This document shows, piece by piece, positions 61,557-64,000 of a stretch of 64,000 nucleotides of DNA; the stretch's first letter is position 1; each line of letters opens with the position of its first letter. Source of the DNA: Escherichia coli (GTDB lineage Bacteria > Pseudomonadota > Gammaproteobacteria > Enterobacterales > Enterobacteriaceae); assembly GCF_029227855.1 (NCBI RefSeq), contig NZ_CP074356.1; one strand, written 5' to 3'. The notes under the pieces were generated by a model that saw nothing but the letters and a program-made list of their open reading frames with translations, did no database searches and had not been told where the DNA came from. A program made the translations under genes and the position numbers.

Positions 61557-61644
61557 CAAAAAATAAGCCCGTGTAAGGGAGATTACACAGGCTAAGGAGG
61601 TGGTTCCTGGTACAGCTAGCATTTTATGGGTTATGTTTTTCAGC
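61557..61644 (-). ncRNA. cyaR: CyaR (RyeE) Hfq-dependent sRNA
   Basis: Reverse complement reads GCTGAAAAACATAACCCATAAAATGCTAGCTGTACCAGGAACCACCTCCTTAGCCTGTGTAATCTCCCTTACACGGGCTTATTTTTT, which I recognise as CyaR including terminator hairpin and U-tail; directly downstream of yegQ. Confidence 0.85.
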
Positions 61645-61678
61645 GAAACAGATGATAACCTTAATAAATGCAGCTGTA

Positions 61679-61728: not shown

Positions 61729-63090
61729 TCACTTACCGTGGGGGTTACGCGTGGTTTCCCCGGAGAAATTACGCATCAGCAGCGCGTAATTTAGCTCAAG
61801 ATCCTGCGGCACCGGGATCCACACAGTATAACCATCGCCCGGTGCGACCGGCATTGCTTCGCCTTTGGCGTTTTCCATGTGCTCAAGGGTAAAGTTAATG
61901 TTCCCTTGCGGCGTCATCAGCTCAAGGCTGTCGCCAACGGAGAATTTATTTTTCACCGCTACCGCCGCGAGGTCGCCCTTGCGCTCACTGGTAAACTCAC
62001 CAACAAACTGCTGGCGGTCAGAAACTGAATAACCGTATTCGTAGTTCTGATAATCGTCGTGAGTATGACGACGCAGGAAACCTTCGGTATAGCCACGATG
62101 CGCCAGACCTTCCAGGGTTTCCAGCAGGCTGGTATCGAATGGTTTTCCCGCAGCTGCGTCATCGATAGCTTTACGGTAAACCTGCGCGGTGCGTGCGCAA
62201 TAGTAGAAAGATTTGGTACGGCCTTCGATTTTCAGCGAATGCACGCCCATTTTGGTCAGGCGTTCAACATGGGCGATGGCGCGCAGATCTTTCGAGTTCA
62301 TGATGTAAGTGCCGTGCTCATCTTCAAACGCGGTCATATACTCGCCCGGACGCTGGGCTTCTTCGATCATAAACACTTTGTCGGTTGGTGCGCCGATCCC
62401 CAGCGTCGGTTCAACGTTTTGCACCGGAATCGGTTCGTACTTGTGTACGATGTTGCCGACGTCATCTTCTTTCCCTTCCTGGACGTTATACTCCCAGCGG
62501 CAGGCGTTGGTGCAGGTGCCCTGGTTCGGGTCGCGCTTGTTGATATAGCCAGAGAGCAGGCAGCGACCGGAGTAGGCCATGCACAGCGCGCCGTGAACGA
62601 AGATTTCGATCTCCATATCTGGCACCTGATTGCGGATCTCTTCAATCTCTTCCAGTGACAGTTCGCGAGAGAGGATCACGCGGGTCAGACCCATTTGCTG
62701 CCAGAATTTCACCGTCGCCCAGTTCACGGCGTTAGCCTGTACTGAGAGATGGATCGGCATTTCAGGGAAGTGCTCGCGCACCAGCATAATCAGCCCTGGA
62801 TCAGACATAATCAGCGCATCCGGCCCCATTTCCACCACCGGTTTCAGGTCACGGATAAAGGTTTTCAGCTTGGCGTTGTGCGGTGCAATGTTGACCACGA
62901 CATAAAACTTTTTCCCCAGCGCGTGGGCTTCATTGATGCCGAGCTGAAGATTTTCGTGGTTGAATTCGTTGTTGCGCACACGCAGGGAGTAACGCGGCTG
63001 GCCCGCATAAACAGCATCTGCGCCATAAGCGAAAGCGTAACGCATATTTTTCAGCGTTCCCGCCGGGGAAAGGAGTTCCGGTTTAAACAT
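61729..63090 (-). CDS. yegQ: Peptidase U32-family protein
   Basis: 453 aa; conserved Cys-rich U32 core. Confidence 0.9.
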   Translation of the reverse strand: MFKPELLSPAGTLKNMRYAFAYGADAVYAGQPRYSLRVRNNEFNHENLQLGINEAHALGKKFYVVVNIAPHNAKLKTFIRDLKPVVEMGPDALIMSDPGLIMLVREHFPEMPIHLSVQANAVNWATVKFWQQMGLTRVILSRELSLEEIEEIRNQVPDMEIEIFVHGALCMAYSGRCLLSGYINKRDPNQGTCTNACRWEYNVQEGKEDDVGNIVHKYEPIPVQNVEPTLGIGAPTDKVFMIEEAQRPGEYMTAFEDEHGTYIMNSKDLRAIAHVERLTKMGVHSLKIEGRTKSFYYCARTAQVYRKAIDDAAAGKPFDTSLLETLEGLAHRGYTEGFLRRHTHDDYQNYEYGYSVSDRQQFVGEFTSERKGDLAAVAVKNKFSVGDSLELMTPQGNINFTLEHMENAKGEAMPVAPGDGYTVWIPVPQDLELNYALLMRNFSGETTRNPHGK

Positions 63091-63291
63091 AATTCTCTCG
63101 TTCTGATGACAGGTCAGATCCGCTTCACCTGATGAAGCGGCCAGGGGAGTGCCCCCACTTTAAGGGCGGGCATTGTAGCGCAATCGTCGGGGTTGGCTCC
63201 AGTGTAATTGTGATGAGCTTTTCGATGCCTGGCGTACAATTGACATCAGAATTGAGTATATTTACGACCGTGAATGTTAAGGAGTTAAAAC

Positions 63292-63897
63292 ATGTGGATG
63301 TTAAAGAAGGGATTCACTCTGGCTCTGTTGGTTCTGTTTTCTCTGCCCGCTACTGCCGGTCTTTCGCTGGAGGAGACTGCTCGCAAGGTGATTATCGGCT
63401 TTCAGCAAGAAGATGCTCAATTAATCAACTCATTAATTGATAAAAAAACGGGGTTGTATGTTCTTTTCCACCGTGGCGCTTCGATGGATGTCGAAAATTT
63501 TAAGTCAATTGATTTTAAAACGCCTGTTCCCGAGTATTTGCTGTGGCCTTCGGCAGGGGAGCATATTCCGCGAGATGAAGAGTTTGATAAGAAAACTATC
63601 CCGGAATTTGACTGTGAACGTGGCTGGAATAAGCACGGATATTTTATTAGCAGCAGCGATACACACCATAAAGTCAGCCGTAATTTGGTCTTCACGCAGA
63701 TGTTTGGTTCACCGCGAAACACTATTTCTGATGCGCAGATTGCCGCAGCGCGTCGAATGGAGTACGGGGCCGTGCGTGTGGTCGCTGCGCCAGAAAAGGG
63801 TAGCGACGGACTGGTATTTTATTTAAGTCAACTTTACGGTTATGACACTGACTGGTATCTGACGGTGGTGGATCAGATTGGTGATTGTGGGGCGTGA
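63292..63897 (+). CDS. Hypothetical secreted protein (201 aa), not assigned
   Basis: AAGGAG 7 nt upstream of ATG; N-terminal signal peptide MWMLKKGFTLALLVLFSLPATA; divergent from yegQ; I could not match it to a known K-12 neighbour. Confidence 0.6.
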   Translation: MWMLKKGFTLALLVLFSLPATAGLSLEETARKVIIGFQQEDAQLINSLIDKKTGLYVLFHRGASMDVENFKSIDFKTPVPEYLLWPSAGEHIPRDEEFDKKTIPEFDCERGWNKHGYFISSSDTHHKVSRNLVFTQMFGSPRNTISDAQIAAARRMEYGAVRVVAAPEKGSDGLVFYLSQLYGYDTDWYLTVVDQIGDCGA

Positions 63898-64000
63898 TAA
63901 AGATTTATCCGCCCGCAAGCAGTGATGTTATTTGAAGGGAATGTAACCCCATAATCTGTTGTGAAGTTCCGGATTGCGGGTAAAAAGCGCCTGAAGTTGC

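Follow-up and report, generated by a model that had tools for sequence, protein, structure and literature searches.

The DNA analyzed here, hereafter the window, is a stretch of 64,000 nucleotides of the Escherichia coli contig NZ_CP074356.1 (RefSeq assembly GCF_029227855.1), and close to its right end it carries a gene for a putative exported protein of 201 amino acids that we call ORF201 (Table 1). As the original prediction had placed it, ORF201 lies upstream of yegQ, that is trhP, and divergent from it, with an intergenic gap of 201 nt between the two genes. The same prediction had expected yegP or the genes on the baeR side at this point: yegP and baeR are present, but they are located just past the window end, with ORF201 and a convergent HEAT-repeat gene intervening. 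In E. coli JNEC-KY178 (NZ_AP045174.1), which is 100% identical over the region and encodes ORF201 under the same protein accession, WP_096931894.1, the gene order past ORF201 is a convergent gene for a HEAT repeat domain-containing protein, followed by yegP, baeR and baeS.

Table 1. Features at the right end of the window (positions count from the first nucleotide of the window).
Feature	Position	Strand	Remarks
trhP (yegQ), divergent core neighbour of ORF201	61729..63090	-	ORF list and RefSeq annotation
Putative structured 5' leader and promoter region of trhP	63091..63181	-	core genome; shared divergent intergenic region
Strain-variable insert, left part	63182..64000		2,235 bp in total, running past the window end to the equivalent of ~65416; junction mapping
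Perfect TTGACA	63240..63245	+	possible -35 of ORF201, without a good -10; unproven
Shine-Dalgarno sequence AAGGAG	63279..63284	+	7 nt 5' of the ORF201 ATG; kept in Escherichia alleles
ORF201 coding sequence	63292..63897	+	ATG start, 201 aa and stop; RefSeq WP_096931894.1, 'hypothetical protein'
Predicted Sec signal peptide of ORF201	63292..63357	+	residues 1-22, cleavage ATA/G; hydropathy and AXA motif, heuristic
Cys108 codon of ORF201	63613..63615	+	predicted disulfide partner of Cys199
Cys199 codon of ORF201	63886..63888	+	within the conserved C-terminal D-C-(G/S)-A motif
HEAT-repeat gene, convergent, 466 aa	63928..64000	-	last 24 codons in the window (73 nt inside), cut by the window end; continues at L001 15838-17238

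The open reading frame proved intact, and the strong Shine-Dalgarno (SD) sequence that had been noticed is in place before its ATG. The N-terminus reads MWMLKK / GFTLALLVLFSL / PATA|G, where a basic n-region is followed by a hydrophobic core of 12 residues and an A-x-A cleavage motif, so all the parts of the signal peptide that had been called clear are recognizable. The leader reaches a maximum 11-residue Kyte-Doolittle mean of 2.65 and, as a heuristic prediction, shows the features of a Sec/signal peptidase I substrate (charged n-region, h-region of ~10-15 residues, small-x-small motif). A signal peptidase II lipobox, [LVI][ASTVI][GAS]C, is absent from ORF201, which reads ...PATAGLS without a cysteine at this point; the E. 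coli B2 allele has an atypical N-A-G-C at the same position. The predicted mature protein would comprise about 178 aa (~20.2 kDa, pI ~5.2), with C108 and C199 as its two cysteines. A consensus scan of the plus strand for promoters and terminators gave nothing convincing for ORF201. Its G+C content is 0.469, compared with 0.539 for trhP and 0.50 for the window.

The core match stops 91 nt upstream of trhP, at window position 63182, and the insert begins there. Junction mapping showed that K-12 holds only 21 nt at the insert site, against 2,235 bp in the source strain, and the distance between yegP and trhP in K-12 is only 146 bp. Two identical junctions are common to all the Escherichia forms of this gap that we tabulated. 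ORF201 is the only gene of the gap in E. whittamii and in another E. coli lineage, and the source strain carries ORF201 plus the HEAT gene. Compared with the ORF201-only genomes, the HEAT gene constitutes a clean insertion of ~1.5 kb, 3-4 nt past the ORF201 stop codon. The gap of E. fergusonii contains genes for a PcfJ-like (404 aa), a DUF1266 (238 aa) and a DUF4034 (702 aa) protein, then ORF201 and then the convergent HEAT gene; that of the E. coli B2 strain Nissle has the same content without the HEAT gene. By junction mapping, this trio is inserted immediately upstream of ORF201, and in B2 strains ORF201 starts 60 bp downstream of the DUF4034 gene on the same strand. In Klebsiella aerogenes, a homologue with 56% identity stands alone, directly between trhP and baeR, and in Klebsiella sp. 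MISC125 a homologue with 50% identity is accompanied by two small genes. K-12 and most E. coli have a gap that is either empty or occupied by a toxin gene of the RelE/ParE family. This gene, found at the same site in many E. coli with its start at most 121 nt from trhP, represents an alternative cargo.

The three-gene block PcfJ-like/DUF1266/DUF4034 (404/238/~702 aa) was also observed in Salmonella, being common to the trhP-baeR interval of E. coli B2, E. fergusonii and that genus (L002 7846-11895 in Nissle, L012 3891-7940 in E. fergusonii and L022 15953-19993 in Salmonella); in Salmonella the block is reversed with respect to its flanks. Regarding the HEAT protein, it has no signal peptide and shows generic HEAT similarity only, and its gene is present in E. 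fergusonii too. We considered this neighbour as an Rhs immunity protein resembling K-12 YibA, the HEAT protein encoded beside rhsA, and dropped the idea as there was no significant similarity to YibA (E 0.35). Among these changing contents, ORF201 is the constant element of a variable trhP(yegQ)-baeR locus in Escherichia, Klebsiella and Salmonella.

The Salmonella counterpart of this site has been described as the 'yegQ locus', where a 14-gene islet, t0721-t0736 or SAIDI-1, lies between yegQ and a gene of ~700 aa, t0737/STM2135 (Barretto & Fowler 2020, PMC7400221). SAIDI-1 was proposed to be mainly an array of orphan immunity genes against type VI secretion (T6SS) and contact-dependent inhibition (CDI) systems, and the islet of Salmonella Paratyphi C at the same locus is reported to hold a HEAT/PRK09687 gene beside PAAR and Rhs genes (PMC7400221). 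The yegQ-proximal t0721 was set apart by its G+C content of ~50%, roughly the genome average, against ~34% for the islet, and by homologues at the yegQ locus of other gamma-proteobacteria without an islet; no function was assigned to it (PMC7400221). Beyond that report, we found no functional data in the literature on DUF4034/DUF1266, on the t0721/STY tags or on trhP regulation.

In the Salmonella record that we analyzed (fbaB-yegS-...-yegQ-...-baeRS-mdt), the first gene divergent from yegQ encodes an ORF201 homologue of 205 aa with 44.5% identity over its full length. The protein falls in a cluster of 842 sequences, each of which bears the name 'hypothetical'. Beyond its gene come small genes in an array, a TPR gene and, on the opposite strand, the DUF4034/DUF1266/PcfJ trio, and STM2135 agrees with the DUF4034 gene in size and position. 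Since t0721 of Salmonella Typhi, like ORF201, lies immediately upstream of yegQ and points away from it, we consider it the ORF201 counterpart by gene order, an equivalence drawn from position and from the Salmonella homologue and not from the t0721 sequence. Unlike Typhi, the source strain lacks the immunity-gene array, and only the HEAT gene stands beside ORF201. The comparison shows that one and the same locus, modular and recombining, is represented by the trhP-yegP gap in E. coli and by the SAIDI-1-carrying 'yegQ locus' in Salmonella.

With the ORF alone as query, we found a homologue in 304 of 5,426 complete E. coli genomes (5.6%, ~1 in 18), which makes ORF201 an accessory gene in this species. 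The source-strain allele (at least 95% identity) occurs in six of the 5,426 genomes, and an allele with ~87.7% identity is present in 296 others, among them Nissle 1917, NU14 and ATCC 11775. All the E. coli copies are single-copy, chromosomal and annotated as 'hypothetical protein', so no conserved, annotated core gene occupies this position in E. coli. The suspicion that ORF201 could be an accessory gene lacking a counterpart in K-12 was thus well founded within E. coli, and it needs to be qualified beyond the species: homologues of ORF201 occupy the position immediately upstream of yegQ/trhP, in divergent orientation, in E. coli, E. fergusonii, E. whittamii, K. aerogenes, Klebsiella sp. MISC125 and S. 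enterica. A position conserved across three genera indicates an old resident, patchily retained or recombining, and no recent arrival.

Two other origins were considered and rejected. That ORF201 is recent foreign DNA is ruled out by its same position in Escherichia, Klebsiella and Salmonella, and that it is phage or plasmid cargo was discarded as no relatives were found in viral contigs, phage genomes, PHROGs or true plasmids. The sole 'plasmid' match was a mislabelled segment of the Salmonella chromosome. This record, CP075030.1 (PLSDB 'plasmid' pCFSAN022626, 301,781 bp; L021/L022), carries the chromosomal core genes fbaB, yegS, yegQ, baeSR, mdtABC, yegD and alkA in chromosomal order, and it is probably a misassigned chromosomal segment. 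Several E. coli assemblies contain frameshifted or truncated ORF201 alleles (P0008, P0009, P0012, P0015, P0018 and P0020), and one truncated form of 114 aa has 38 member sequences; these alleles reflect either ongoing pseudogenisation or assembly errors.

The dN/dS of ORF201 ranged from 0.15 to 0.34 across all Escherichia pairs (Nei-Gojobori), compared with 0.005-0.05 for trhP in the same pairs. These values denote a gene that is functional yet fast-evolving, under purifying but relaxed selection, and it has been lost from ~94% of complete E. coli genomes. Between the source strain and Nissle, dS was 0.32 for ORF201 and 0.089 for trhP. The E. fergusonii allele shares 91% amino acid identity with the source ORF201 and the E. 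coli B2 allele 83%; as the allele of another species is the closer one, the history of ORF201 alleles is incongruent with the species tree. This pattern fits old allelic lineages that moved by homologous recombination via the conserved flanks. The purifying selection on the orthologues, together with the RefSeq annotation and a family of ~207 representative clusters, indicates that ORF201 is not a chance open reading frame.

A word-indexed search with ORF201 retrieved 21 clusters, almost all from Escherichia, and an exhaustive profile search retrieved 207 representatives at E<=1e-3 (96 at E<=1e-10), mostly of 190-230 aa and matched end to end; a scan of genome contigs matched one species representative. 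Named sources of the relatives include Prevotellaceae and Holophagales MAGs. Neither ORF201 nor any of 122 relatives had a family match in Pfam, NCBIfam, PADLOC, PHROGs or PDB sequences. Judging from these comparisons, ORF201 appears to belong to an undescribed, cross-phylum family without a Pfam or NCBIfam model. A hydrophobic N-terminal leader is present in 117 of the 122 members and a lipobox-like motif in ~34. The motifs of the family are P-x-F-D-C...W-x-K-x-G and, at the extreme C-terminus, W-Y-L-T-(I/V)-x-D-(R)...D-C-S-A, and its near-invariant residues are G54, G62, C108, G116, E157, F176, W188, D194 and C199. The positions of C108 and C199 are both cysteines in 118 members and neither is in 4, with no case of a single one (n=122), which is the pattern that a disulfide would be expected to leave in exported proteins. 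In about a dozen members, the domain forms the C-terminal end of longer exported proteins, whose N-terminal part consists of MORN_2, LRR or unknown regions.

An AlphaFold2 model built on the 122-sequence alignment reached a pLDDT of 88.2 and a pTM of 0.83, while with 10 close sequences the pLDDT was 40. The order of its elements is two N-terminal helices, a beta-hairpin, an insertion, a strand, two helices and three strands ending near C199; the insertion (residues 71-115, 45 residues, mostly coil) holds C108. By structure comparison the model has the alpha+beta cone of NTF2-like proteins, with helices on a curved antiparallel sheet, and the Foldseek search against the PDB was not significant. 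Compared with members of this superfamily, such as SnoaL polyketide cyclases, ketosteroid isomerases and structural-genomics proteins (e.g. PDB 3bb9, 3gzb and 3f40), ORF201 is ~50-60 residues longer, has the 45-residue insertion, is predicted to be exported and contains a conserved, predicted disulfide. It also differs in lacking a sequence-profile match to NTF2-clan families: none of the 122 members reached SnoaL, DUF4440 or the other Pfam families of the clan, with just sub-threshold hints to Tim44 and TcpC, and a profile search against PDB sequences gave noise only. In this sense, the modelled ORF201 would be best described as a distant, enlarged and exported member of the NTF2-like fold class, outside every curated family.

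Taking these data together, we give about even chances to ORF201 being a stand-alone functional gene whose product, a small protein of an undescribed NTF2-like family, acts as a binding protein in the periplasm. The protein would be exported by Sec to the periplasm via its predicted signal peptide, and DsbA would then form the Cys108-Cys199 disulfide, tying the C-terminal tail to the insertion. The cone may act alone and bind a small molecule or an envelope component in a pocket, as suggested by the fold class and the conserved residues, with the near-invariant E157, R/K162, D194, W112 and W188 as candidate pocket residues. Alternatively, the conserved Gly, Cys, Trp and Phe of the family could be purely structural. 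ORF201 would work outside any multi-gene machine or toxin-immunity pair, and the gene itself is autonomous, as it is the only gene that separates trhP from yegP/baeR in E. whittamii, some E. coli and K. aerogenes.

Its rapid evolution, its scattered occurrence among strains and a locus that hosts immunity islets (PMC7400221) fit a role related to antagonism at least as well as a housekeeping binder. In its specific form, this alternative takes ORF201 as an orphan periplasmic immunity or inhibitor protein against an envelope-targeting toxin or hydrolase of competitors (T6SS, CDI or similar), belonging with the defence islets of the yegQ locus. ORF201 resembles orphan T6SS/CDI immunity proteins in being small, exported (by prediction, to the periplasm), fast-evolving and strain-variable, with an islet-hosting locus in Salmonella where t0721, which corresponds to ORF201 by position, is the yegQ-proximal gene of the proposed orphan immunity array. 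Its protein evolves about ten times faster than TrhP, its genealogy departs from the species tree, frameshifted alleles are on record and fusions to MORN_2 or LRR repeats occur in some distant members, all of which would suit such a role. The neighbours of the homologues tell against it. We surveyed ~27 contexts, namely 9 enterobacterial and 18 distant loci (4 exact look-ups and 14 from a metagenome scan), and none had T6SS, effector, Rhs, PAAR, VgrG, Hcp, CdiA or toxin genes beside the homologue, so a cognate effector neighbour is lacking in all of them. Across the 87 neighbouring ORFs of the 18 distant loci, no Pfam family appeared more than twice and there were no adjacent paralogues; the genes abutting the homologues encode a SRAP peptidase, methyltransferases, a tRNA-editing domain, an epimerase, a WG-repeat protein and unknowns. 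Searches of Pfam, NCBIfam, PADLOC and PDB sequences did not match ORF201 to any known immunity family either, and motifs conserved across phyla suggest one biochemical role and not co-evolution with diverse toxins. Additionally, the authors who described SAIDI-1 separate t0721 from the immunity genes on account of its G+C content and its occurrence at the locus without an islet (PMC7400221). The neighbour survey thus weakens an immunity-like role, which we regard as unlikely, at something like one chance in five.

The HEAT protein of the source strain, or the PcfJ-like/DUF1266/DUF4034 trio of B2 E. coli and E. fergusonii, could also form one multi-gene system with ORF201. The five genes are contiguous in E. 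fergusonii, the 60-bp spacing on one strand in B2 strains would suit a common unit, and Salmonella has the trio and an ORF201 homologue in one interval. Nevertheless, ORF201 does without all these genes in E. whittamii, some E. coli and K. aerogenes, its distant homologues have none of them as neighbours, and the Salmonella trio lies ~9 kb off on the other strand. S. Typhimurium LT2 has the ~700-aa gene STM2135 but lacks t0721 (PMC7400221), and the HEAT gene is a clean, separate insertion whose product has no signal peptide. Such a system is therefore the most improbable of the explanations weighed here. Hardly more probable is that in E. coli ORF201 is a decaying relic without current function, kept merely for want of deletion so far. 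Its absence from ~94% of complete genomes, the truncated and frameshifted alleles listed above, a dN/dS far above that of the flanking core gene trhP and the lack of a clear promoter in the consensus scan would be in line with decay. Against this, dN/dS is well below 1 in all Escherichia pairs, 302 of the 304 E. coli copies span at least 80% of the gene, and ORF201 retains an intact SD sequence, signal peptide, cysteine pair and C-terminal motif; moreover, the B2 allele cluster comprises 412 sequences, with one exact sequence on at least 1,000 contigs.

Beyond the stand-alone periplasmic binding protein, a wider proposal can be made, which we put forward as a speculation with odds well below even. 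ORF201 would be the enterobacterial representative of an undescribed family of exported, disulfide-stapled NTF2-like proteins spanning Proteobacteria, Bacteroidota and Acidobacteriota, whose conserved acidic/basic pocket would have a new periplasmic activity. This activity might be the binding of small molecules or an enzymatic reaction in the envelope, or ORF201 might represent a new class of protective inhibitor, independent of effectors, that seeds the interbacterial-defence hotspot at yegQ. As a separate observation from the distant loci, a homologous gene of the beta-lactamase family (PF00144) lies one or two genes downstream of the ORF201 relative at two unrelated metagenomic loci (L010 7695-9020 and L046 1773-3170). 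This is the sole neighbour that recurs across loci besides closely related contigs and generic methyltransferases, and the cases are too few to interpret.

By itself ORF201 matters little, as conserved hypothetical proteins with a predicted export signal are numerous, and this one had been annotated before and mentioned in passing in PMC7400221. Variability of the locus next to yegQ was already known, and in this sense ORF201 is a modest and unsurprising curiosity. Its conserved position across three genera does correct the notion of foreign DNA at this point. The family could become a database entry, given ~207 representative clusters, a confident NTF2-like model and a covarying cysteine pair, and it is readily testable, as a homologue exists in Nissle 1917 and in strains of the CFT073 type.

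The leader of trhP may be of greater interest than ORF201. The 91 nt between trhP and the insert junction are nearly invariant across Escherichia, Klebsiella and Salmonella, and they contain an invariant TACAAT followed by three hairpins. In the central 9-bp stem every pair is kept in 7 of 7 sequences from the three genera, with both-sided compensatory changes at 4 pairs. Paired cells amount to 100% overall, compared with 39-63% in slid controls, and none of 500 shuffles attained the covariation score that was observed. A search of Rfam returned no match to the leader, even at E<=10. On the strength of these seven sequences, it may be an undescribed structured cis-regulatory leader. On the other side of trhP, between this gene and yegR, the window contains the small RNA CyaR (61561-61646, minus strand; Rfam RF00112, 100.7 bits). 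The source strain lacks the P2-remnant genes ogrK/yegZ, which in K-12 come after cyaR, and in E. whittamii a full P2-like prophage occupies the site on the cyaR side.
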